From: Naegleria gruberi
Taxonomy: Eukaryota
Direction: 5' to 3' (one strand)
DNA: 64,000 bases
NCBI GenBank assembly: GCA_000004985.1
Contig: GG738888.1
This document shows, one piece after another, positions 47,090 through 63,834 of the stretch (the first letter of the stretch is position 1; each line of letters starts with the position of its first letter). A program made the translations under genes and the position numbers. The notes beneath the pieces were generated by a model that ran no database searches, was not told where the DNA came from, and saw nothing but the letters and a program-made list of their open reading frames with translations.

Positions 47090-50000
47090 ATGTTAAAGTG
47101 GTGTGTCCTCATAATTATTCTTCTCTCAACCATTTTCACATCACATGCACAATATGTCACACAAACAGTGGCAGGTAATGGAATTTCCCAAAGTTTGGGA
47201 GATGGTTTTCTTGGAACACAAGCGAGTTTAAACAGTCCAAGAGATGTTGCTCTTGACATGTATGGTAACATGTACATAGCTGAAGAGAAGGCACACAAGA
47301 TTAGATTCATAAACAAGACAACAGGTATTATTTCAACATTGGTTGGAAATGGCATTGCTGGAAGTGTTGGAGATGGTGGATTGGCTATTAATGCACAATT
47401 ACATTTACCATTCTCTCTAGCAATTGATTCGACTGGTCAAAATTTGTTCATTTCTGACAGTGGAAACCATGTTATTCGTCACATTAACATGACAACACGT
47501 ATCATTTCAACTGTTGCTGGAACAATGCGTAGTCCTGGATTTGGTGGTGATGGAAATATTGCCACACAAGCACTATTAAACACTCCTAGAGGAATTAGAC
47601 TTGATTGGAAGGGAAACATTTATATTGCAGGTAGTGTAGTTTATTGACAATTTAATACTTACAATAATGCAAGATACTTCAAATTGTGCCATTAGAATGG
47701 TCAATAGAACTAATGGGCTCATTTCAACCATTGCTGGTAAGGGATCAATTTGTGGAACTAAATTATTAGGAAATGGTGGATTAGCAAATAGTACAACACT
47801 TTACAATCCGTTTGGTGTTGCGGTCGACTCATTTTTCAATGTTTATATTGCTGAGAGTTCTGCAAGTGTTATTCGATTTGTTGATAAATCAACAGGTATT
47901 ATTTCAACATATGCAGGTGATGGCTCTCCAGCATATAGCGGGGATGGTGTATTGGCAAGTCAAGCTAAATTGAATTATCCTAATTTTGTAACTATTGACA
48001 ACTTGTCAAATAATCTTTTAATTGCTGACACTGCTAATTTTGTAGTAAGATATGTGAATAGAACAACTAGAATTATATCGACCATTGCAGGATATAATGT
48101 TAATGGAAATAGTGGTGATGGTCTTCCAAGTAAGCAATCATCCTTTTCTTCCTTATTTGGAATAACAACAGACATGGAAGGAAATGTATACATTGTAGAT
48201 GCACCGAATTCTGTTGTTAGAATACTAATCAAAACATGTGATAGCTTATTATTTACCTGTAATAATCATGGTTCATGTCTTTCATCCCAAACTTGTAAAT
48301 GTAATTATGGATGGAGCACAGAAACATGTATCCAACCAACTTGTTTTGGTATTTTAGCAACCACTAATGTGGCATGTAGTGGACATGGAAAATGTTCATA
48401 TGTGGATTTATGTGAATGTGATATGGACTTTTTTGGTAATGAATGTGAATTCTTTAAATGTTATGGAATTAATTATAATAATCAATCTGTGTGCAGTAAT
48501 GGTAGAGGAAACTGTTCTTCACCAAATAATTGTACTTGTCAGAATAATTATTTTGGTAATGAATGTGAATTAACAACTTGTTATGGAATTGAAAGTAATA
48601 ATTCCAAAGTATGTTCTGGAAATGGTAAATGTATAGGAAAGGATGAATGCTCATGTATGAATGGGTATGTTGGCGACTATTGTCAGCATACTGTTTGCTT
48701 TGGTATTTATGGAAACGAAACATGTTCTTCTAGAGGAAGTTGTATAGCACCTGATAATTGTGAGTGTTTGGATGGCTACGGTGGCAGAGATTGTAGACAT
48801 TATGAAGTTTTTATGGATTTTGAAACTGTTTCCATTCATTCATCTCATCATCTGTTAATGAGAAAGTTAACAAGTGACTTATTGGAGTGTGGAGAGATAG
48901 TATCAGAATCGGATATATTAAAATTGGGGGAGAAAGATTCCCTTAAATGTTATTGGAGGGAATTAAGTGGATTTAGAATATATTTAGGCTATAATCATAA
49001 TATAACACATGGTTCAGTTTTAAATATCATGAATAATCTATTGACCATACATGTTAATGCATCTATTTCAGATCAAATTAGAAAAAGTAATGAAAATGGT
49101 GTTGTAATAGGATTTCCACTTGATGTATTTCCAACTAACAAGGATTTATTAATTAGATCTCAACATGATCAACACTATAATAATTTTAAATCAGTTTCCC
49201 AGAATTGGAAATTTTCTACAGTTATTCGTAATACAATTCATCCAATTCAAGAATTACTAGATAGAAACGATAACAAACCGATCGTTATCATTCCATCAAT
49301 TAATATTTCGGATCTTCAATCACTAACCATATCAACATTGACAATCAATGATTTATCAATTCAATCAACAAGTGAAAGAACATTTGCATTTGAGAAATCA
49401 AAGGATATTCCATCACAATTTAATATTTGGAATGAAATTAGTTCACAATCTTATTACCAAGATTGTATAGGACATAATTGTATAGTTGAATCAACATTAA
49501 TTGGAATGAAAACATCACTCACTTATTCTTTTAATGGATTTTTAATTGTAAAAAGTAAAGAATTTCAAAATAGACAAATATTTAGAATTACAAACAAAGT
49601 TGAAAATGATTTATTGAAAGAAAATTACAAAGGAACAATGCAAGTAGTAGGATTGAATTTAAATTCATACTCTTCTTCTTATTATCAAGTTGATTTGACA
49701 TATTCATCATTTGACATGTTGGATATTTATCTTGTTGGAATTAACAAGACATATTCTAGAAATGAGGCTATTGTTTTATCTACTTCTATTATTGATCCCT
49801 TTGTGTTTACCTACTCAGATATTAATAGTTTTAAACAAAGATGGTCATATCAAAATTCAATTACTAAACAATATGATTCAATTTTTGGAAGTCAGCTCTA
49901 TATTGCACCGCTACCTGTTGGATTATATGATATTTCGTTAAACGTAACTACGAAGTCCAATGTTTATACTTTTTATGGTAAAATTGATATTGTAAATTTT

Positions 50001-53000
50001 GAAAATATTCCATCTATTAACATTAAGCACGTTCCAGCAATTTATCCCTTTGGATCGAATATATATATTGAAATGTCTATAAAGAGCGACATTCCAATCA
50101 AGAAAATTCAATGGAAGTTACTAGAGGGAAAATTTGATAGCAAGCAATCACTAACTAACAATTATAATGAAATTCTAGAACAATCATTTAATCCAATCCC
50201 ACATTTTGTAAATACGCAACAATATATGTTAAATATTGAAAAAAAATATTTGATTGAGGGTGAAAGATATCAATTTCAAATAGTGGCATGGAATGAAAAT
50301 GGTCAATATGCTATCTCTAACATTTCAACACGTATTGATATGTCTCCTAGATTTTGGTGTGATATTTATGATCCAATTGGAGAAAATAAGGCATTTACCA
50401 GTACGTTTGTCGTTAATTGTGTGAATACTATTGCGGAGAGTGTATCTAGTTATTGGATTGATGTTTGGGATAATGATACAAGATTGATGATCTTGTCAAA
50501 TACTCAAAAAAGAACTTTTATTACAAAATTACCATTTACCAAATCTGGTTATTTGAATATTGGTATTAAACTTATCAATATGAATGGTTCATTTTCAAGA
50601 ATATTTAGAAAGGTGAAGGTTAATAATCCTATTTCTGATCTTTCACTACAATCTAGAATTAATTTTATTTTTTTAAATTTTAATATTATAATTGAAGAAC
50701 CTATTTCCATAGATACTATCATTAAACTATCTTGTCTTCTTTCTCTAATTGATAAGAATGATGATTTTACAGAATTAAATTCTGTTGATAAGAATATACT
50801 TGTAAAAAGTTTAACATTATTAATAACAAACTTGGATAAAATTCAACAAATTGCATTAAATGTTGATGACAAGCTAATTCAAATCATTCTTCCACTCCTT
50901 TCCAAAGTTACAACAATTATTCAACACATATCATTACAATCTATTAGTGAAACTGTATTATTACAAAATATTAAGTGGATAATAAGTGGTTACAAAAATA
51001 GTTTTCAATATTATTCTCCTTATATTATGAATCATTTATTAGATTTTACTCATGCTCAAGAATTGGAAACATTGTTTAAGACGTTATTGGTTAAAGGAGG
51101 TGGAATGAAGTCAACAGAAATGCTTCCGAATGTTGTTAATATTATACGCAGGTCCTATTTCAGTAGTGGGCTGGGTTTACAAAATCAAACAATTTCTAGA
51201 ATTTTCAATTCATTTGGAGCGAAGGGATTTTATGAAGAAATTGATACTGCATTACATTTATTAAATGGAAAACAATTCAATTTCCATTCTAATCAAGAGG
51301 ATATTCAAATAGATTTCAAAGTTTTAAACGATGTTCAATATAATCTAATTACTCCTTACAAAGTTAATTTGATTTCATATACTACCAAATCATATTTGAA
51401 CGTATCAGATAGTGTATCTTTGGCATTCATGTATGAGACTGGTGAGATAATACCTACTACAAGTTCTAAATATTCCACAGTTCAAATCAAATTCAATAAT
51501 GTGACACTAACTCTCGAAGAGGATAACATTTCATTATTGAAAGTTTTTTGTGTATCATATGATTATAGTAAGGATACTTGGAACACTGATGGAATTGAAA
51601 CGATATTTAATATTACACAAATCATGAATAGAACTATTACATTAAATGTAACTTGTCAATATCTATCATCTGTGGGCTTGACAACAATATCAATTCAAAA
51701 AGGTTTTTCAACCTACAGAAATACAAGTAGTAGTATTATTCCAAATACTCCACAATCAGATAAGATAATAGCGATTGTAGTGCCTATTTCAATATTGTTA
51801 CTCATTTCCATTTTAGTAATTCTAATATGTATAGGAATTTACTATTACAGAAGTAGATATTGGAGCAAAAGATTGAAAAATGAAAAAGAAATGGAACAAA
51901 AACTCTTAGAAATTGAATTGGAATTGAATGATAAAAACCCTCAACCCATATCCTATCTAATTCCCATTGAAGAATTGGAGTTGATAAAAAAGATTGGAGA
52001 AGGAGGGTTTGGCCAAGTTTACCTTGCAAAATGGAAACATGTTCAAGTTGCAGTGAAATGTGTCAGTAATTATGAAGATGAAGAACAAATAGAACAATTC
52101 AACGGAGATGATATGGAAGATGCATTTGAAAAGGAAGTTTTATTGTTAAATAGTTTAAAACATCCAAATGTTATTCACTTTTTTGGAGTTTGTCTTACTC
52201 AAACTAAAAAGTTAATGATTATGGAATATTTGGAAGGTGGGTCATTGGATAGAATTGTTTCAGAACTTCGTTTAAAAAGAAGGAAAATGTTATTGAGAGA
52301 AAAGATTAGAATATTGTTTGGTGTTTCGAATGGAATGAGTTATTTACACAATTTGAAACCTTCATCTATTATTCATAGAGATCTCAAGACGGCAAATATT
52401 CTACTTGATAATTACATGCAACCAAAAGTGTGTGATTTTGGATTATCAAAATTGATTGGAAATAATAATTCAACAACAATGACTACTAATTTAGGAAGTA
52501 TTTTTTATATGGCAGTAAGTGTTACTATATTACTATTTGCTAATTATGGATAGCCTGTAAGTTTTTTGTCGATATGGATGCGATTTAAATATTAAGGAAT
52601 TAATTGGAGATGGCTATCAAAATATTACAAACAAACTTGATGTGTACAGTTTTGGAATTATCATGTATGAACTCTTCTTTGAGGAAAATCCATTCCTTAA
52701 TCAAAATTCAAAGAAAATTCATCGGTTCTCCTCCAATTCATCATCTTCATCAAGCTCGTCAGAACAATCAATGGAATTGAATAGTTTTAGCGTACCTGTT
52801 CGAGTATTGAATGGAGTTAGACCTAAAATACCCTTCTCTAATATGATTGAACAAAGACAGTGGATATCAGAGTTTATGAGTGACGATTATGACCATGAAA
52901 AGAAGAGTGATATGAAAACAATCAATGATTTGTGTAAACTTGTGGATGATTATATCATGTTGATGAAAATGTGTTGGGATGTTGATCCTGAAAAAAGACC

Positions 53001-53058
53001 ATCTTTTGATGAAATAGGACAATATTTGGCTGATGTAATGTCTAACTATCAACTTTAA
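47090..53058 (+). CDS. Receptor-like protein kinase (TKL-type) with extracellular NHL-repeat beta-propeller and tenascin-type EGF repeats, 3 exons
   Basis: Exon 1 is ~47090-47630 (signal peptide MLKWCVLIIILLSTIFTSHAQ plus NHL repeats). A 43-nt GTAGTG...AG intron follows. Exon 2 is ~47674-52514 (more NHL repeats, about 6 EGF-like Cys repeats of the form C..HG.C....C.C..G..G..C, a long extracellular region, TM IIAIVVPISILLLISILVILICIGIYYY, and kinase subdomains I-VIII: IGEGGFGQVY..VAVK, HPNVIHFFG, IIHRDLKTANILLD, CDFGLSK). An 82-nt GTAAGT...AG intron follows. Exon 3 is ~52597-53058 (...DVYSFGIIMYEL... to the end). Confidence 0.65.
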
Positions 53059-53122: not shown

Positions 53123-55186
53123 TTACAATAGAATGAAGGTACATCCAATTAGGACGAAACAAAGTGCAAAAACTATGAGTGATCCCACGATCAGTGTTAC
53201 ATTGGAATCATTTCTCTTTGTTTTAGTTTGTACTTTGGTATATTCTCTCATTAAATCATCATCAGAAAATCCATAAAGCTCATCAATAGATTCATCATTT
53301 CCTTCTCCTTCACCTTTGCTCGTGCTAACAACTTGCTTCCATTTACTTCTCAATTCTCTAACCTTTCCCAATATCATACCATAAACCTCTTCCTGCCGCT
53401 CTCTACCATAAGTGTTCACACTAACATCTTTCAGATATTTGTCTTTGAAATCGTTAGGTAGTTGATTTTTGGGAGTGTCAAAATCTCCAATAAGATCAAA
53501 CCTAACGACATGCTGAGCGGGAACCACTTGATATGTGTTTTCATCTCGCAAAATTGAATCAACTTGTTTTTCTGTTGAATATTTCACTGTGAAATTGGGT
53601 GAGTTACTGGTGGGCTGATATGAGAAGACACCAGTTGTTGTTATTTGAGCTTTGTCTGTACGTTTTTTGAATTTGTAATCAAATAGAACCTTCATTACTT
53701 CGTTGCTTTCATTAACATGTAAATCGTCAGTTGTTCCTCTTTTAGATTGAATAAAGTGAACTAAATGTTTGTCATTACCCACAAATATGATGCATGAATC
53801 AGCACTTGGTGTCTGAGGAGCATTCTTTCTCATTGTAAACTCTTTTGGAGTGCTCTGAATGACATCATGAACAGAACCAAAAGCATTTCCTTCAAGAACT
53901 TTGAAATTCTTTGGACAATAATAGTCAACACCATCTTTCCTCATTATCAAAGAACTATTGTTGATATGTTTGGTAACATATGGCCAATACTCTTTCAAAA
54001 ATCTCAAACCTACATCGCATATTTCATTGGCGTCTGGGCTATATTCTGGAGATAATATTGCAAGATCAATTGGTAGGACTGGAAGACAACGAATGAGCTC
54101 TGTAATAGTAATGAGAGGTGTTCCCTTTTCATTTAAATGAATCCAACCATTTCTATTCATTCTCTCCTTATCAATGGACTCAATTCGCAAATTATTTGAT
54201 AGATAGTCACTGTAAATTGCTTCATACAGCAGATTCATCAAAAATAAAGGCTTTTCAGGGTTCAAATTTTTCCAATTTAAACAGAATGTTGTGAAACCAG
54301 TTTCGTATTTTGCTGCAATTTTACATAAATATTTCCAACATTTGCCTTTCGCAAAATCAAAACGATCCTCAGTCTCAGTCATTTTCTTAACTCTGTCTGA
54401 TGCCCTGCTATAAATTCTTTTTGGTAACGTCCAACCATTATAAATTGTTTCAACATGCTCGAATACTGTTTTGGTGTCAGAAATGCCAGTGGATTTCCCC
54501 CAACTCCAGCTTTTAACAAACTCTGTACACAAACCAGGATGTCCTCTTAGTAAATTGAAACAAAGTTTGAATAGGTAGGTCAGTATTGAATTTGATGGAA
54601 AGGCCATGTTTTGTAAAAAGATATTAATTTGATCATCATTCCAATAAGCAAGCCTGATCCATTCTGTTATATCTGGATTCAAATATTCAAACATAACTGC
54701 TGATTGACTAGTAATTGCAATCAGAACAAATGTTTGTTCACACAAGAATTGGAGCATCTTTCGGATAGTTTCTTGTCCAAAACGTTCAACAATTCTATCC
54801 AAATCATCAAATTGTAAGAGTAGATCATTGGCTGTTCCTTTTAAATTTGTCAAAAGTGTCAAGAGATTTTTATCATCTAAATTCACCGATGGTTGACTCT
54901 TCAATAATTTAAATACTAATTCCTCTTCATTTCTCACAGAAGCCAAGTCTAACAAAGAAACTCTATCAAATGATATGTTAACAATGGAAAGTTTATCACT
55001 ATTTGATGTATGATATTCCTGAAAGAAACGACTCTTTCCAATTCCCTTCACACCACAACAAACAAATATACGTTTCTTATTGGCGATGGATTTGGCTAGA
55101 AGTGTAGATTGAGTAGCATTCTCAATGTAGGTTAACGTTGGTGGTGCCATTTTTTTTAAAGTGTCATCATCTTTACTAATCGCCAA
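53123..55186 (-). CDS. Tail-anchored P-loop NTPase of unknown family (687 aa)
   Basis: Single exon. Walker A is FVCCGVKGIGKSRFF and Walker B-like is LLLQFDDLD. A large C-terminal region holds the conserved RGHPGLC and ...LPIDLAILSPEYSPDANEICDV... blocks, and a C-terminal TM anchor (LIVGSLIVFALCFVLIGCTFILL) follows. A tandem paralogue lies immediately upstream. Confidence 0.55.
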   Translation of the reverse strand: MAISKDDDTLKKMAPPTLTYIENATQSTLLAKSIANKKRIFVCCGVKGIGKSRFFQEYHTSNSDKLSIVNISFDRVSLLDLASVRNEEELVFKLLKSQPSVNLDDKNLLTLLTNLKGTANDLLLQFDDLDRIVERFGQETIRKMLQFLCEQTFVLIAITSQSAVMFEYLNPDITEWIRLAYWNDDQINIFLQNMAFPSNSILTYLFKLCFNLLRGHPGLCTEFVKSWSWGKSTGISDTKTVFEHVETIYNGWTLPKRIYSRASDRVKKMTETEDRFDFAKGKCWKYLCKIAAKYETGFTTFCLNWKNLNPEKPLFLMNLLYEAIYSDYLSNNLRIESIDKERMNRNGWIHLNEKGTPLITITELIRCLPVLPIDLAILSPEYSPDANEICDVGLRFLKEYWPYVTKHINNSSLIMRKDGVDYYCPKNFKVLEGNAFGSVHDVIQSTPKEFTMRKNAPQTPSADSCIIFVGNDKHLVHFIQSKRGTTDDLHVNESNEVMKVLFDYKFKKRTDKAQITTTGVFSYQPTSNSPNFTVKYSTEKQVDSILRDENTYQVVPAQHVVRFDLIGDFDTPKNQLPNDFKDKYLKDVSVNTYGRERQEEVYGMILGKVRELRSKWKQVVSTSKGEGEGNDESIDELYGFSDDDLMREYTKVQTKTKRNDSNVTLIVGSLIVFALCFVLIGCTFILL

Positions 55187-55337
55187 TCAAACTGTTGAGA
55201 GGTTTCCACTTTCGATAGACCTGAAATTTGATAAACAGGTTCATCTTATCAACACTACAATTTTCAACCAGACACATTGAAATGGTGTGAATTTATTTTT
55301 CCATTAAGCTTTTCAACACTCGTTGTCATTCCTTAAT

Positions 55338-58212
55338 TTACAAAACAAGAGCAGCAAAAATCAAGCAGAAAACTATAGCAAAAATTAACAAGTACCACAA
55401 GAATGAACCAACACTTGAAGGTTTCGTCTTTTTGCCATGAGATTTTTGATAATATTTGTCAGTTTCGAAATTGTCATCAGAAGCAGAACTATAATAATCT
55501 GAATCTCCTTCTTCATCCTCCATTTGAGCGACCACCTCACTGCTGCTAGCTTTTGGAATTGGTGTGTTATTAACATACTCATCGATCATCTCATTACTTT
55601 CTACAGTTTCAAGTTTAGGATTAGTATCATTCTTCTTTCTTCTTCATCTCTAGGTGATTCCCAAGCACTACTCAATTCTCTCAACAGGCTTAATAATGGC
55701 CCATAAACTTCTGTACTCTTACTCTTTCCATGAACCTCAATCTTGATAGATGGAAAGATTTTCTTCAATTTTAAAATCGATTCAGTAAAATCATTATCAA
55801 AATCTCCAATCAATTCAAATAAAATGTTAGCTTCGAGTGGTGTTATTTCTTCATAAGCTCCATTTTTTTTGCCTTCTTTAATTTCTTCACCCTTACTTCC
55901 ACTGGAAGAACCTTGCAGTCTTACTATATGAAAGTTGTTTGTGTTTGTGTGAAAAACTGAGTAAATTTCACTTCCCTTGGTTGTGAACTTTACTTTTTCC
56001 AAGAGAGGTTTTGGTGGTTCCTTTGCGTTTGTTGTCAATCTTTTAGATTTTCTTCCTATAAACAGTTCATCTACAGCTTGTTGTTTTTGTGTTTCCTCCT
56101 TTTTCTTTAAGTTTTTAAATGAGACTACTTGAAAAACATAGTCAAATAACGTCTTGAAAACCTCATCTTCCAAGCTAACAGCAGCATTTGAAGCACTTGT
56201 GAATCTTTTAGATTGAATCAAATGTAGTGAGTTTCCTATTTTACAAAAAGAATCTGCTCCTGATGCTTTTTCAGCATTCACATAGAGCATGTATTCATCT
56301 GGTTGTACCAACATTCCATAAACATCAAGTTTTGATAGAGAGTTCATAACTGAGAAATTTGTTGGAATGCTATTTCGAATTCCATCTATCGTTAAGGAGA
56401 TTGTATTTGCATTTTCGTCCTTTTGAATATGTGGCCAATAATGTTTCAAAAATCTCACACTGACATCCGTTATTTCATTTGCATTTGGGCTGTATTCTGG
56501 TGCCAGAATTGCAATATCGATAGGCAAAAAAGGAAAGAGACTAATGAGCTCAATAATTGTCAACACTGCAACTCCTCCACTTTCATATAATTGTCCTTTC
56601 TTTCCCATCTTAATAGCTCTCTTACTGGTTCGATAATTTTCATAAATTGACTTGTTGGGATCATATTTCTTTTTCTTTTGGGTGGCTGTTTCGTCCTTAC
56701 TCGAAGTCAACTTTCTTTTGACATCTGTTGTTGTGTCAGAACTAGTTTGATTGGAGTCTTTGGATTGTTTGCTATCTTTCTCACCGTTTGCAAACAGTGC
56801 ATCATGCAGGATATTCATCAACAAGAACTTTTTCATCGCATCCATTCCTGAACTAAACTTTTCCACAATTGGAGAACTATAACGAGCAGCAATTTGATGG
56901 AAATAAATCCAACACCTTCTTTTGAGAAATTTCTTGAATTTCTCTACTTCAATTTCTGAGGAATCAACTTGTCCCTTTCTGTATTCTTCCATAATTTTAG
57001 TGAATGAAATTGAGTTTAGATTTCCATCTGTCCAACACTTTACAAACTCCCAACACAATCCAGGATGTCCTTTCAATAAGTTTAAAGCAATCCAAAATAC
57101 ACTATAAACACATTTGTCTTCCCTTGAAGTATTGTCACTATTAAATCCCAATAATTTTTGTAAAAACTCCTTAATATCAGTAGTGTTCCAATATTTGTGA
57201 ATGATTATTGTCTGCTTGACATCAACTTCTTCTGGTTGACCTTCATCTGTTCTCATCAATACATCATATTCATCCTCATCAACATTATCTTCATCACCAT
57301 CAACATCATCTTCTGTTTGACCTTCTGTTAATGTGGCTATTGATTGTTTCGCATTAAACTTTTGTTTTTTTATAATAACGGCTACCTTATCAGTTTCATC
57401 AGTAGTGGCTTGTGATGAGGTGGTGGTAACGTGCTTTTTTCTGTATTATTTCTTATAACACTTGATGGAATACATTCACCAACAATAGTTTGATCTCTGG
57501 ACGAAAGTGCAATTCTAATTTTTTGAATGGGAAGAGTCAATAACAATGCAATAGATTCCTGCAATAGAGAATTTCCTCCCTGCTTGTAAAACGCTTGGAC
57601 ATCATCAAAATGAATAAGAATGATACTTGAAGAATCGAATAATTGTAAGAGAGCGTATACTCGGCGCTGATCTGATAACGAATCATAATTTTCAGGAAGG
57701 TTTCTTGCATCATCAGAGAGCTTACTAATTAAAATTCTTTCAATAAATAATCGTTTGTTTGAATTTTCGATTGGAATAAGATTTTTTTCATAATCAGAAA
57801 GTTCAATTCGCAAATATCGAACAGGAACCCATGGAGATTGTGTTTTGTTGTACAGTTCAACTCCTTCTCTGAAAAAATGTGTTTTTCCAATTCCCTTCAC
57901 ACCAAAATTGTAAATTACTTTAACTTGAGGTGTTTTGAGAAATTCGAATAAAGTTTGATTATTTCGTTGAAGTGGTTTGTCACCAACAGCTACTGCTGAA
58001 GAGGAGGATGAAGCTGATGATGAAGACGAATCTGATGATGATTGTACACCAGTTGCCCGTGACATTTTTAAACGAGAGTGTGAAAGATTGTTGTGAAATC
58101 TAATCATCATCATCATTGACCTCTTAATCGTTTCTGGAACAACGACACAATTTATGGAGTTGAGTTTACTATTAAGATTTACCGAGTTGAAATGGAAAGT
58201 GATTGAGTGCAT
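55338..58212 (-). pseudogene. Tandem paralogue of the tail-anchored P-loop NTPase, split into three ORFs by apparent frameshifts
   Basis: Track ORF 57382..58212 carries the N-terminal P-loop part (GVKGIGKTHFF; ILIHFDDVQ). ORF 55601..57259 carries the middle region (KGHPGLCWEF; ...LPIDIAILAPEYSPNANEITDV...). ORF 55338..55589 carries the acidic linker plus the C-terminal TM. These align collinearly with gene 53123..55186. Frame breaks lie near 57400-57430 (an A6/T6 run) and 55592-55630. They are too close together to be introns. Confidence 0.45.
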
Positions 58213-58295: not shown

Positions 58296-59394
58296 ATGTT
58301 GTTGTGGTACGATTTAGTGTGGATGGTGTTGTTGCCTCTCTCTTTCTTGTTGTTTGCTTTCTACTATTTAAAGAGAGAACAATTAGTGGAGAAATCGAAT
58401 AGAAATTTTGAGTATGAGGGAGAAGATAGACTCTTTCTTATTAAACCACCAAGTAGAATAGTGGATCTCCCAAAGAATAGGTCTATAGATGAAGTTTTAT
58501 CTAGTGTGAAAATTAAAATGTTATCCTATAATAAATTATCATTGGACCAGGGAAAGAAACTAGTCGAAAGGTTATCGGAAAGAAGATATTTCAATTCTCT
58601 TCAATATTTGTGTTTAGTAAGTGTGTAATTATCTATGGAATTTATTGAATAACATCTTTCAACAGTCAAGACCTCAATATACTTGCTCATGTTCTCTTAC
58701 AACTTTGACATCTGTTTGGAATTATTTATTTACTTCAATGGGATGTGGTGATTTACCTCCATTATGTCAGGAAGATGTTATTTCATTAATGGGATTTGAT
58801 GAACCTTTCGATGATATTAGTTTTGGTAAATTGGCTTCAAACAAACGTAAGTTTAGTTTAGTTTAGTTGTAAATAATTGGAAATAGAGGATGCTTTAGTA
58901 AGTTGATCAAACAATGTGGAATTATTAATTTTATCAAAAAGTGGTTCTATACATTGTGTTCTTTATTCAAAGTTAGAGGAAGATCTTCCATGGTGTGGAA
59001 GAAACAAGGCGAAAACAATACGAAAGGTAGAACAAGAGAACAGGTAATGTCTATCATTAAACAAGGACTGAAATCAAAAACTTGTTCATTTGTCTATCAC
59101 ATGCACCATCATGTTTGTTTAATTGTAGGCTATGAAGAAACACCCATTGATCCGACACTATCCTATTCTAAACTAAACCTTTCATCAGATGAAAAGAACA
59201 CTTGGCTCATTGTTGGTGATATTTCATCCAAACTCTCACCTCTAATCTCTGTTTCATTGGATGACATAGAAAGAGACTTGTCAACTCAACCTCCTCAATA
59301 CCTCGACGTTAGACATTTGAATGATGGTTTGAAATTTGATGAAACGTTAAGCTCAAATCCCAACTGCATCATAATGTATGAGCATTGTGTGTGA
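58296..59394 (+). CDS. Phytochelatin-synthase-like papain-fold protein (half-size, N-terminal TM), 3 exons
   Basis: Exons are ~58296-58616, ~58666-58846 and ~58889-59394, with GTAAGT donors. Collinear matches to the PCS catalytic domain are seen: ...GKKLVERLSERRYFNSLQYLCLVS|SRPQYTCSCSLTTLTSVWNYL (Cys-nucleophile region), ...ISFGKL..., ...KTCSFVYHMHHHVCLIVGYEE (His region), ...TWLIVGDISSKL (Asp region). There is no Cys-rich C-terminal domain. Confidence 0.5.
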
Positions 59395-59493: not shown

Positions 59494-61579
59494 ATGAACA
59501 CTATTCAGAAGCTCATCTTTGTATTGTTATTGGGTCTACTTGTTAGTGTTGTGTATTCATCCACATTATCATCAACATCTGGAGATTCGTCCAGTTTATC
59601 TTCACTTTGTACTCAAATTCCAATCTCTATAACAAATATTGGTGAGTGTGTTGAAACCGAATGTAAAGCAACTATCAGCACATTAACCAAAACTCTCTCA
59701 TCCAAATCAAATTGTTTTCTTTTAACTGTCGAAAATCAAATTGTCGGTCAAATTAATATTGACATGCAAAACGGTTTCAAAACACAACAATCTAATGAGT
59801 GTTATTATTCTGATGATTATGCTTTCAATACTACTATTAAATGTAGTAGATCCTCTCGTTTGACTTGTAGTAATTGTCCAGGTTTCTCTTCGAATAATCC
59901 CTATTCGAAATGTGTTTTTGGAAGAGGTATTGAAAATCAGTCCTGGTGTGGATATACAACTTATTTTATGGGAAATTTGAGATATAAAGTTTGTCATCTC
60001 AGTGAACCTTCTCCACCATCCATAATGATGAAAGTTTCTACTAGTCAAAATTCCATTCCTTTCTACGTTAATTATACGAAAGATGTCAATCAATATACTA
60101 ACTCTGATGGTAGTATTACTGTTTCTGTTGATAATGTGAAAACTACTGATCCAGAAGTCAAGCAATTCATTGCCTATGATTCAGCAAATCCAACCGATTT
60201 CTTTTATTTACCTTTTCACTTGGTTAATATGGGAAACGAGTTTAATTATTCCAAATTGGGATGGGTCAAATCATTCCCTAAACCTAGTATTGGTCATCCA
60301 GATTATCCACCAACTAATTTCATGACTATTGGTTGTGAAACTCAAAATGGTATTGCAACAACTTCAGCTGTCTATAATTCTGACATTTTGACTTCCTCTT
60401 ATGCAGCTTCCAAAATTGGAGGCATGTCTTTACAAGATGCAGAATATAACACTTTACAATTATCAAACTTCCCTGGATTGGGTTACAATTATCAACCTTA
60501 TCATTATATTAAGGATGGTATCATGAGCATTTTTTACAAAACTCCGTCTCGTGTTACCTTTATTGGAATAACTCCTGATCTCCATATAGTTCCAATGCAA
60601 TATAATGCAATTCCTGCAAGTGTTAATATCAAGACTAATAGAGGTTTGGTTGAAACATTTACAAGTCCAGTAGCTCACTGTGATTATGTTTATACTCCTG
60701 AAGGTGGAGCATGTACTCAAGTGTGTCTTATTCGAAACTCTGATAGTGTTTCCTCATATGGATTTGCAAGAATGAATAGCTGTCAATTTAATCATCATTC
60801 TTTGGTTGGATTATCCGATTTTTCAATCACTGCAATGAAATGGCCTGAAATGCAATGGTATTCTTACACATTTAAAAAGAATATTACATCTACTAGAGTT
60901 AATACCCCTTCTCTAGTGTCAAGTGTCACAATTAATTCATTGACTGTTAGTTTGAATTATCAATTAACATTAAGAAACTTTACAATTTCATTCAAATCAA
61001 GTTCAATCATTCCAACCATTGGAAATTGTACTCAAGATGGAAATCAATTATCATTTACATTGGGAAGTTTATCCTATCCTGGAAAAATTCTGGTATACTT
61101 TTCAGATTCAAATATTCCTTCATTATCACCAGTTGTTGGTCTAATTCCATCTGTGTCAACTGTCCAATTGACCGATTCACAAGTTAAAACTCAAGATTTG
61201 GTTGTCATTGCAAGAAATGGAGATTATCAATCAACTTGTATCATTTCAATGAAAGGTGTGTTATCAACTGAACCATTTGTATCTAGACAATATTGTAAAC
61301 TTAGAGTCAACCACAAATTCAACTGATAGTGGAAATAACAATGGAAACAATGGAACTACAACTTCAGAATGGGTTGACAAGGTTTCTGCCAAGTTGGGAC
61401 TTTCAATTTCCCAATACGATTCAACTACTCAATTGGCGATTGTTGTTTCAATACTTTTGGCTATTTCATTGGCATGCACTGTTGTAATTGTTGTTATTGG
61501 AAGATTCGTGTTCAACAAGTACTTTTCCAAAAAGAAGAAATCAAGAAAATATAAGAAATATTACAATAAATATGATTAA
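59494..61579 (+). CDS. Cys-rich type I membrane glycoprotein (paralogue A), C-terminal part in a shifted frame
   Basis: Track ORF 59494..61326 has a signal peptide and a large N-glycosylated Cys-containing ectodomain. ORF 61256..61579 in another frame holds the Gly/Asn-rich stalk, TM (LAIVVSILLAISLACTVVIVVI) and basic tail. Both parts are collinear with paralogue B. A single-nt frame change lies within about 61280-61320. Confidence 0.5.
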
Positions 61580-61593
61580 ATAGTTGTAATGCT

Positions 61594-63834
61594 TTATTGC
61601 TGTTTCTCCTTCTTCTTTTTTCCTTTTAATGAAATGGCACACTTGACAATAAGAATAATGAATCCAATAGCCAATCCAATTGCCAACAAGGAACCAATAG
61701 CAATTCCAATAAATACTAGAACTGTAATGAAAATTTGAATTGGTTCTGTGAATCCCTTCAATGCTTCAGACAATGAAGGACTAAATCCATTCAAGAATGA
61801 TAGAATTCCAGATAATCCACTTCCACCTCCACCACCACCATCAGTGTTGTTAATTACAATTGGAGGATCATTAATTGTTACATTATAATTAATAGTGATG
61901 GCACATTGATCCTTGTAGTCACCATTTTGGACATAAATAACCACAATAGCATTCTTGTAAGAGCCAGATATGGAAGTGGAATAAGTTTGTGAAACGAGAC
62001 CAATAGTTGGATTTGATGAAGGAATGGTTGGAGATGAAAAATAGACCAATACTTTACCAGAATAGGATAAACTCTTCAAATCATAGAATACTTGATTATC
62101 TTTCTGATTGCAATTGGAAATTTTTGGCATGATAGAGTCAGATTTGAATTTAACTGTAAAATTATTCATGGTAAGTGTAAATGAAACATAGGCGGTTGTT
62201 GAAGCAATATTAACTGAAAGAGGAATAGTTGAAGTGCTTATATCATCATATGGAGTTGAGGTGATTTTCAATCCTGAATATTCATATTTGTAAGGTCTAA
62301 AATCTGGATATTTCATAACAATAGCACTTGTAAATGGAATGAGTTTTGATGAGTCAAATGTACAACTGTTCATTAAGGCGAATCCATACTCATTTACTGC
62401 GCCAGGTGTTTTTGTAATGACACATGCTTGTGTACAAGTATTCTTTTCCTTATATATTTGAATGAAATCACAATGAGCATAGGAAGGAGACCATTGAATA
62501 TTTGTTGCCAAGTTGGTATTTAATGTAAATGGAGTAGTAATAACATGGTATAAGTAAGGAACAATTTCCTTTTGAATAGTCAATCCAATAAATGAAACTT
62601 TGGACATGTCACTTGGATTATAACTCATGAAACCCTGACCAATTGACCAATATGGATTGTAAACTCCCAAATTGGTCCCACTCTGAGCTAGTCCACTAAA
62701 AAATGAGGGATCATATAATTGAACACGATAGTTTAACTTGGAAGCTCTATACTGTTCCAAGAGACTGCTATACACAGGAGCAGCTTTAACTTCCAATCTA
62801 CCTCCCATATTATCTCTACAGACAAAATCAGTAATCTTGAAACTTGAATCGAACCTAAAACCTGCATCATTACCATATGATTTGAACCAACCAATTCTGT
62901 CATAATTATACTCAGTTTTTCTGTTTGTAGTAATTGCTGGAAGATAGTAGAAATCATCTGGTTTGGCAGTTCTATACATGACAAAAGTGGAAGGTTGAGG
63001 ATCATCTCCAGAGACTGACGAAACTGTAAAATTCAATGACCTTTCTGGAGAGAGAAATGTTTTAACAGTATCCTTATATTCAATATTCAACTCTTCCATT
63101 GGTGTTGTAATGTGCAAAACAACATTCTTAGCACCTGGAGATCCCAATTGACAAACTTTGTAATCGTAACCACCTGAAACCCAAACTTTGGCACACATGG
63201 TTCCTTCATCTTTAAATATACATGGACCCCAATTAGCTAGATTTCCCCAAAATCCCCAATCAGACCAAGAACTTGTAAAACAATATGCTGTTCCTGGATA
63301 CTTTGAAGAATCGATTGGACAATATGCTCCAGATCCACATCCAAGTGACTCCTGATTATGACATCTACAAGTTGATTCCCATGTATATTGTGGATCTGCT
63401 GTGTAATAACATCCATCGGTGGTTGCTGTTTGAATTTTATACGAATCTAACAATGATATATTCACAGTACCTAAACTAGTGTCATCCAAGAAGAGTTCCA
63501 TACACATTTTTGAATTACTTCCCGTACTAACAGATCCAGCAACTACAATATTTGCCTGACACACATTTGCAACACAATTTTGAATGGAACTCACAGCAAT
63601 GGGTGTTGATTTACATGCCATGGAATTTTGACCATTCACAAATCTGAAATTTGTTGTGAGTTGATTTAGAACTATTAGTATGGATAGTAAAAGTACACCA
63701 CATATTGATCGTGCTTTGAATAAATGAAAGAAGGACATTAAAGATGAATGATGGCAGCTAGCCAGATGTGTGTGTGAAGAATATTTTTTGAAAAACAACA
63801 GCATTATAGCTATGTGGAGAACTGACATTGTCAA
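61594..63834 (-). CDS. Cys-rich type I membrane glycoprotein (paralogue B, intact)
   Basis: 746-aa single ORF with a signal peptide. Its ectodomain is homologous to paralogue A (..CYYT.D...., ...DFYYLP...NYDRIGWFKSY..., ...YKVCQLG.P...). A poly-Gly stalk, a TM (IFITVLVFIGIAIGSLLAIGLAIGFIILIV) and a KKKKEKQQ tail follow. Confidence 0.6.
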   Translation of the reverse strand: MTMSVLHIAIMLLFFKKYSSHTHLASCHHSSLMSFFHLFKARSICGVLLLSILIVLNQLTTNFRFVNGQNSMACKSTPIAVSSIQNCVANVCQANIVVAGSVSTGSNSKMCMELFLDDTSLGTVNISLLDSYKIQTATTDGCYYTADPQYTWESTCRCHNQESLGCGSGAYCPIDSSKYPGTAYCFTSSWSDWGFWGNLANWGPCIFKDEGTMCAKVWVSGGYDYKVCQLGSPGAKNVVLHITTPMEELNIEYKDTVKTFLSPERSLNFTVSSVSGDDPQPSTFVMYRTAKPDDFYYLPAITTNRKTEYNYDRIGWFKSYGNDAGFRFDSSFKITDFVCRDNMGGRLEVKAAPVYSSLLEQYRASKLNYRVQLYDPSFFSGLAQSGTNLGVYNPYWSIGQGFMSYNPSDMSKVSFIGLTIQKEIVPYLYHVITTPFTLNTNLATNIQWSPSYAHCDFIQIYKEKNTCTQACVITKTPGAVNEYGFALMNSCTFDSSKLIPFTSAIVMKYPDFRPYKYEYSGLKITSTPYDDISTSTIPLSVNIASTTAYVSFTLTMNNFTVKFKSDSIMPKISNCNQKDNQVFYDLKSLSYSGKVLVYFSSPTIPSSNPTIGLVSQTYSTSISGSYKNAIVVIYVQNGDYKDQCAITINYNVTINDPPIVINNTDGGGGGGSGLSGILSFLNGFSPSLSEALKGFTEPIQIFITVLVFIGIAIGSLLAIGLAIGFIILIVKCAISLKGKKKKEKQQ

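Follow-up and report, generated by a model that had tools for sequence, protein, structure and literature searches.

A three-exon gene on the plus strand

We examined a 64,000-nucleotide stretch of the genome of the amoeboflagellate Naegleria gruberi (GenBank assembly GCA_000004985.1, contig GG738888.1; hereafter the window), in which a plus-strand gene at 58296-59394 had been read, in an original prediction made from the letters alone, as encoding a membrane-anchored, half-size relative of phytochelatin synthase (PCS). Here, we show that the locus encodes a divergent Naegleria gruberi member of the BIVM family. We consider it very likely that its apparently unannotated product has a papain-like (clan CA) core of ~230 residues and is a predicted cysteine enzyme with a putative membrane anchor.

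Three open reading frames (ORFs) follow one another at 58296-58628, 58621-58866 and 58903-59394, and they join in frame through a 49-nucleotide GTAAGT...CAG intron and a second GTAAGT intron that departs from the donor at 58847. Exon 1 (58296-58616; 107 codons, phase 0) holds the start ATG, a hydrophobic segment, a linker and the beginning of the BIVM core, which we place at residue 93 (58572), where the alignment to a family hidden Markov model (HMM) starts. Intron 1 (58617-58665; 49 nucleotides, GTAAGT...CAACAG) is followed by exon 2, which resumes at 58666 in phase 0, and the resulting junction, QYLCL/SRPQY, aligns without gaps to the family motif RWxCxSRPQY. Exon 2 (58666-58846) contributes the RPQY..SC motif, Gln111, Cys116, Asn126, ISFG and Asn166, and exon 3, which in our preferred model starts at 58889 and ends at 59394 with the stop codon TGA (59392-59394), contributes the WF helix, Lys205, Tyr237-His238, His242, Asp278, Asp297 and Arg309.

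The sequence has a GC content of 33.6% and a stop rate of 0.074 per codon, at which frames of 110, 81 and 163 codons would stay open by chance with probabilities of 2e-4, 2e-3 and 4e-6, respectively; frames longer than 140 codons were rare in shuffled windows. Because an in-frame TGA lies 21 nucleotides upstream of the ATG at 58296, and only 84 bp separate this ATG from the start of a divergent gene upstream, we take 58296 to be the natural start. The product comprises 335 residues under the preferred model of intron 2 (322 or 307 under the other models) and stops ~15 residues past the domain, so that the Cys-rich C-terminal half is missing, as had been predicted. A tblastn search found no paralog of the gene within the window. 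Overall, open frames beyond chance, in-frame GTAAGT introns and an HMM match that spans all exons confirm the three-exon structure proposed at the outset.

Membership of the BIVM family

A word-indexed homology search with the whole spliced protein returned nothing at E ≤ 0.01, a result that reflects the sensitivity limit of the tool and not an absence of relatives. An exhaustive phmmer search with the exon-3 peptide alone (58975-59391) against 1.84 billion representatives recovered 138 proteins (E ≤ 1e-3), of which 63 reached E ≤ 1e-10, at 30-38% identity across the whole query, with the top match being only 37-38% identical. The named relatives are BIVM proteins of Ptychodera, Lymnaea, Corticium, Styela, Blepharisma, Dysidea and Nematostella, and a transcript of Pharyngomonas kirbyi (Heterolobosea) also encodes a family member. 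PF28452 (PF28452.1) is present in the precomputed annotation of all 54 relatives. One match is a 1676-residue fusion with XPG_N and XPG_I domains, and corresponds to the known BIVM-ERCC5 read-through product. The relatives share the core RWxCxSRPQYxxSCGISSLVSCWNYL...FGPFTGN.TL..WF...YHCxNHYxxPIGYE...WxLIGD.S...D...R....G.

We built a family HMM of 229 positions locally from the relatives found with exon 3, and it matches the spliced protein over positions 1-228 of 229 (E = 1e-73 to 1e-76) in all plausible isoforms. Since the family had been found with exon 3 only, the match to the end of exon 1 and to all of exon 2 shows independently that the three exons are parts of one gene. All invariant residues of the BIVM signature, RPQY..SC(G), WN, GN, K, YH(C)x(N)H(Y)..(P)xG, an acidic D/E, D and R....G, are present, and the bracketed residues (G, C, N, Y and P) are substituted in Naegleria. 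The spliced protein matched no Pfam-A family at E ≤ 10 in a Pfam copy used without PF28452, and bona fide BIVMs also gave 0 families because PF28452 is not in the copy that was scanned. No match to the spliced protein was found among PDB sequences.

The Naegleria protein resembles other BIVMs in its end-to-end core match, its retained invariant residues and its order of secondary-structure elements. It differs from them in its N-terminal hydrophobic segment, whereas most members carry long low-complexity N- and C-terminal extensions, and it may also carry a 14-residue insertion ahead of the WF helix, depending on how intron 2 is placed.

Searching PDB sequences with the BIVM profile gave a single sub-threshold match, an antibody heavy-chain variable domain (E = 0.37), in which YYCARHY aligns with YHCxNHY. 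We rejected this match as homology and regard it as the chance resemblance behind the name 'immunoglobulin-like variable motif'. The His of this motif is the predicted catalytic His of the family.

Among human proteins, BIVM is one of seven whose papain-like nature was newly recognised, and it was placed in cluster I together with papain, calpains, C39, C70, BtrH_N, GUCD1, UFSP2 and PCS (Ozhelvaci and Steczkiewicz, JBC 2023, PMC10318531). BIVM also shows a ciliary phylogenetic profile, and mouse Bivm was localized to the ciliary base (Nevers et al., MBE 2017, PMC5850483). A homolog has likewise been reported in Leishmania (PMC12567135). Occurrence in a flagellate-forming host such as N. gruberi fits this cilium-linked distribution, given the published ciliary profile (PMC5850483).

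Placement of intron 2

To place intron 2, we enumerated all in-frame GT..AG pairs and then scored them with the family HMM. The preferred intron (58847-58888; 42 nucleotides, GTAAGT...ATAGAG) gave 236.8 bits and leaves a 14-residue insertion before the WF helix. A second-ranked intron of 81 nucleotides (58861-58941) with a GTTTAG donor reached 246.1 bits and gives the best match to family length. An intron of 126 nucleotides (58847-58972) was rejected, as it removes the near-invariant WFxxLxxxFxVxG helix and scored 214.0 bits, ~23-32 bits worse. In the open frame upstream of the acceptor of the 126-nucleotide intron, FIKKWFYTLCSLFKVRGR aligns with the family motif TLxxWFxxLNxHFxVxG, whose W and F are conserved at 97%, and this alignment with a conserved helix indicates that the frame there is coding.

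The 81-nucleotide intron was ranked second despite its best score because the three other introns seen all use GTAAGT, and the 42-nucleotide intron was preferred because very short GTAAGT introns (39 and 40 nucleotides) can be deduced in an upstream kinase gene. Judged from these sequence features, intron 2 most likely measures 42 rather than 126 nucleotides. The catalytic residues are untouched by any of the alternatives.

The insertion that the 42-nucleotide intron leaves in place (58889-58941, plus strand) reads ...KQCGIINFIKKW... and loosely resembles the nucleophile motif SCGISSLVSCW. MAFFT mis-aligned KQCGIINFIKKW onto that motif, a resemblance that is probably coincidental.

Conserved residues and predicted fold

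Conservation was counted over 108 full-length cores, and residues are given in the numbering of the 335-residue product (positions after intron 2 are 13 lower in the 322-residue product). Asn126 and Asn166 are invariant (100% each), and nearly so are Gln111 (99%), Cys116 (97%), Lys205 (99%), Tyr237/His238 (99%), His242 (99%), Asp297 (99%) and Arg309 (97%), and the column of Asp278 is acidic (D/E) throughout. Naegleria retains every one of these residues, including the acidic Asp278. Among them, Gln111 (58675-58677, plus strand, exon 2) is the predicted oxyanion residue, Cys116 (58690-58692, plus strand, exon 2) the predicted nucleophile, His242 (59110-59112, plus strand, exon 3) the predicted catalytic His, and Asp278 (59218-59220, plus strand, exon 3) the acidic residue of the triad. 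Naegleria is also the most deviant member of the family at G117S, C239M, N241H, Y243V, P246I and W291L, which correspond to G117S, C226M, N228H, Y230V, P233I and W278L in the 322-residue numbering.

We modelled a 294-residue sponge BIVM with AlphaFold 2 (AF2) using a 48-sequence alignment, and obtained a mean predicted local distance difference test score (pLDDT) of 88.7 and a predicted template modelling score (pTM) of 0.82. In this model, the Cys of SCG opens the core helix, the His of NHY opens a long strand, and the acidic residue ends the next long strand; as modelled, the Cys, His and acidic positions are canonical for a papain-like enzyme. The contiguous exon-3 peptide of Naegleria folds at pLDDT 90.3 with the same order of elements as the sponge BIVM model, and it matches papain-like enzymes only. 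Both features of a papain-type enzyme, a core with a helix followed by an antiparallel sheet and a predicted Cys-His-Asp triad, were found in the models of the homolog and of the exon-3 fragment, with Cys, His and Asp where the original prediction had put them.

In Foldseek searches, six Alr0975 entries ranked at the top (E = 1.3e-4 to 5e-4), and the models thus show primitive PCS as the nearest solved fold. PDB 22oc, 'P210 CD lyase' (released 2026), has an identity of only 8-13%, and a literature search on 'P210 CD lyase' found no paper in the searchable library.

Relationship to phytochelatin synthase

The structural proximity to PCS raises the question of whether the Naegleria protein is itself a half-size PCS-like, membrane-anchored protein that acts as a glutathione hydrolase or a gamma-Glu-Cys dipeptidyl transpeptidase, like cyanobacterial Alr0975. 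Some resemblances speak for this reading. The nucleophile helices align in hhalign, SCGISSLvSxWNyL with FCGLxSLxvVLNAL, and the Naegleria protein and AtPCS1 have ISFGK in common. The Cys/His/Asp triad and the upstream Gln also recur in PCS (C83/PF05023; the AtPCS1 N-domain and Nostoc Alr0975, PDB 2BTW/2BU3), and the size is that of the half-size cyanobacterial enzymes.

By sequence, these resemblances do not reach the family level. BLASTP against the AtPCS1 N-domain gave E = 0.65 over 72 residues that include the Cys helix and ISFGK; the AtPCS1 sequence is validated as a PCS by its 1e-33 match to Alr0975. A PCS N-domain HMM, built from 24 aligned PF05023-labelled proteins and run with all filters off (--max), scored -1.1 bits on every Naegleria isoform. 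PF05023 had no match in the spliced protein at E ≤ 10. Neither family profile recognises the other family, with the PCS HMM reaching at most 4.9 bits on 185 BIVM proteins and the BIVM HMM at most 4.4 bits on 120 PCS. The hhalign comparison of BIVM with PCS covered the nucleophile helix only (16 columns, probability 4%); in a greedy alignment, 165 columns were collinear and Gln, Cys and Asp coincided (probability 6.8%), and the global mode was uninformative. Coincident columns are limited to Gln, Cys and Asp, plus a loose D..[KR]..P..H pattern, and the PCS-invariant motifs KGPWRW, QTGxGHFSP and DxARFKYPPHW have no counterparts in the BIVM/Naegleria alignment.

The two families also differ in other ways. 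The structural alignment has 14% identity, and a long beta-hairpin lies between His and Asp in the present protein, which brings their spacing to 36 residues versus 18 in PCS. A separate set of invariant polar residues (Arg, Asn, Asn, Lys, His, Asp and Arg) characterises BIVM and argues for a binding pocket different from that of PCS. The Naegleria protein is without a Phytochelatin_C domain, and nothing was found that links it to glutathione or metals. Furthermore, the taxonomy of the family tracks cilia (PMC5850483), not metal detoxification. We conclude that the BIVM-PCS relationship is one at the superfamily level, not the family level, and that an Alr0975-like PCS is a very unlikely identity for this protein.

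Accordingly, the proposed assignment to PCS is withdrawn in favour of BIVM, since the PF05023 search on which it was to be judged gave no significant match. The collinear PCS alignment on which the assignment was based has no statistical support by sequence (E = 0.65, -1.1 bits, 4-7%), although by structure the Cys helix, the His strand and the Asp strand are true topological equivalents. Glutathione hydrolase or gamma-Glu-Cys transpeptidase activity is not supported. Nor do the neighbouring secreted-protein genes, which the original prediction had noted, carry a functional implication, because they have no Pfam domains and operon logic does not apply in a eukaryote.

Other enzymes share cluster I with BIVM, namely C39 and C39-like double-glycine peptidases, staphopains (C47), UFM1-specific proteases (C78) and GUCD1/Guanylate_cyc_2 (PMC10318531), and many of them cut after Gly-Gly or at the C-termini of modifiers. 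Their structural scores are below that of PCS, they show no sequence-level match, and they occur in domain contexts of their own, such as ABC transporters, secreted virulence factors and UFM1 pathways.

A predicted N-terminal membrane anchor

Residues 7-25, LVWMVLLPLSFLLFAFYYL (58314-58370, plus strand), form a predicted transmembrane or signal-anchor segment with a Kyte-Doolittle 19-mer mean of 2.17. This hydrophobicity, together with the in-frame stop upstream of the ATG, upholds the N-terminal hydrophobic segment of the original prediction. The 74 codons ahead of the next Met are open, for which the stop rate gives a chance probability of ~0.0035. Comparable N-terminal hydrophobic segments were found in 0 of the 185 other family sequences. 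An acidic residue precedes the segment and KRE follows it, which by the positive-inside rule suggests an N-out/C-in orientation. Based on these sequence features, the segment probably holds the predicted catalytic domain at a membrane, on the cytosolic side, and would be unique within the family.

Predicted mechanism and competing explanations

In the predicted core, Cys116 occupies the N-terminus of the core helix, with Gln111, five residues upstream, as the oxyanion-hole residue; a central beta-strand begins at His242, and Asp278 comes after the long strand that follows. The Cys116/His242 pair, oriented by Asp278, may attack a peptide or isopeptide carbonyl to form a thioester acyl-enzyme, which water or an amine would resolve, making the protein a putative cysteine-dependent hydrolase or transferase. 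Tethered to a membrane, it might have as its target a short peptide, a C-terminal tail or the linkage of a modifier; the biology of the family points to the flagellar apparatus as a possible setting.

Among solved structures, the nearest folds belong to primitive PCS, to C39 double-glycine peptidases and to UFM1 proteases, all of which cut beside Gly or another small residue, in a small peptide or a C-terminal tail. By extension, the substrate is probably a short peptide, tail or modifier and not bulk protein, and, given the published association of the family with cilia and basal bodies, it may be cilium-related. By analogy, BIVMs, the membrane-tethered Naegleria form included, could work like PCS and take Gly/Glu units off the C-terminus or the side chains of a cilium-specific substrate, which would make them candidates for the long-sought deglycylase, or for a related editor, of the glycylated and glutamylated C-terminal tails of axonemal tubulin. 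This idea draws on the first step of the best structural neighbour, the deglycination of gamma-Glu-Cys-Gly, and on a family that tracks cilia, sits at the ciliary base, strongly conserves its catalytic residues and has no known substrate; we offer it as a highly speculative long shot.

Several observations weigh against a membrane-anchored BIVM-family enzyme at this locus. The gene is apparently absent from the annotated N. gruberi proteome. The triad geometry of Naegleria is deduced from a homolog model and the exon-3 fragment. The substitutions at near-invariant positions beside the active site could mean altered or lost activity. A transcript start downstream of 58296 could lead to translation from Met75 and thus to a protein with no membrane anchor. 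Finally, no demonstrated enzymatic activity or substrate for any BIVM protein was found in the searchable literature.

The last of these points would be expected if the protein were a catalytically dead papain-like scaffold that binds a partner at the basal body or membrane, comparable to inactive clan-CA relatives such as UFSP1-like or androglobin domains, and so would the flanking changes unique to Naegleria (SCG to SCS, YHCxNHY to YHMHHHV, and PIG to IVG). We nevertheless consider such a pseudoenzyme rather unlikely, as conservation of Gln, Cys, His and the acidic residue stands at 97-99% over the 108 cores and Naegleria has retained all four. Such retention from metazoans to Discoba fits purifying selection on catalysis. 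Moreover, three of the seven newly recognised human papain-like proteins were reported to be without catalytic sites, and BIVM is not among them (PMC10318531).

The apparent absence from the annotation could also be explained by a decaying or non-expressed gene relic. No protein with any of the three exons was found in a 15-billion-protein collection, in which neighbouring N. gruberi genes are present; the boundary of intron 2 is ambiguous, and the protein is unusually divergent (26-37% identity to any relative). A relic would not be expected, however, to keep three open exons with canonical GTAAGT donors and every family-invariant residue intact, or to fold at pLDDT 90.3 in its exon-3 fragment, and short multi-exon genes are often missed by automated annotation. 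We hence regard decay as extremely improbable and retain an unannotated BIVM-family protein, predicted to be catalytic, as the best account of the locus.

Significance of a BIVM gene in Naegleria

Among eukaryotic proteins, BIVM is conserved, correlates with cilia and has a papain-type active site that is predicted from sequence to be intact. As its gene is apparently missing from the N. gruberi annotation, it would be scored absent in proteome-based phylogenetic profiling and in expression studies of differentiation. Naegleria forms basal bodies and flagella de novo in about an hour, and this de novo assembly of basal bodies makes it a good system for ciliary proteins such as BIVM.

The papain-like classification of BIVM (PMC10318531) and its link to cilia (PMC5850483) were already known; new here are the Naegleria gene and its N-terminal segment. 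The recovered gene, the identification of primitive PCS as the nearest solved fold and the lineage-specific, probable membrane anchor provide starting points for the biochemistry of BIVM.

Neighbouring genes

The ORF directly downstream (59494-61323, plus strand) is identical to N. gruberi XP_002673752.1/NAEGRDRAFT_71075, which marks the window as nuclear DNA of this species. Together with 61594-63834 on the minus strand, 59494-61326 forms a convergent pair of paralogs that encode Cys-rich proteins; both begin with a signal-like segment and have no Pfam domain. The two paralogs share collinear motifs, e.g., YKVC.L..P, NYSK/DRIGW.KS and GDY...C.I, and the protein at 61594-63834 additionally has a C-terminal Gly-rich stretch, a transmembrane segment and a Lys-rich tail.

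Upstream, tandem paralogs on the minus strand (53123-58212) have an N-terminal P-loop, GVKGIGKS/T, with a weak AAA_22 match below the Pfam cut-off, and their common C-terminal region contains LL[KR]GHPGLCxEFVKxW and ILAPEYSPxANEIxDV. The ORFs at 57382-58212 and 55601-57259 appear to be halves of a single gene that an intron or gap interrupts at 57260-57381, and together they match the single 687-residue ORF at 53123-55186.

In the receptor-kinase gene at 47667-53058, the subdomain VIII motif GSIFYMAPELIGDG (52509-52600, plus strand) is restored only by removing two GTAAGT introns of 39 nucleotides (52515-52553) and 40 nucleotides (52557-52596), which leaves a 3-nucleotide micro-exon, CCT (Pro), at 52554-52556.

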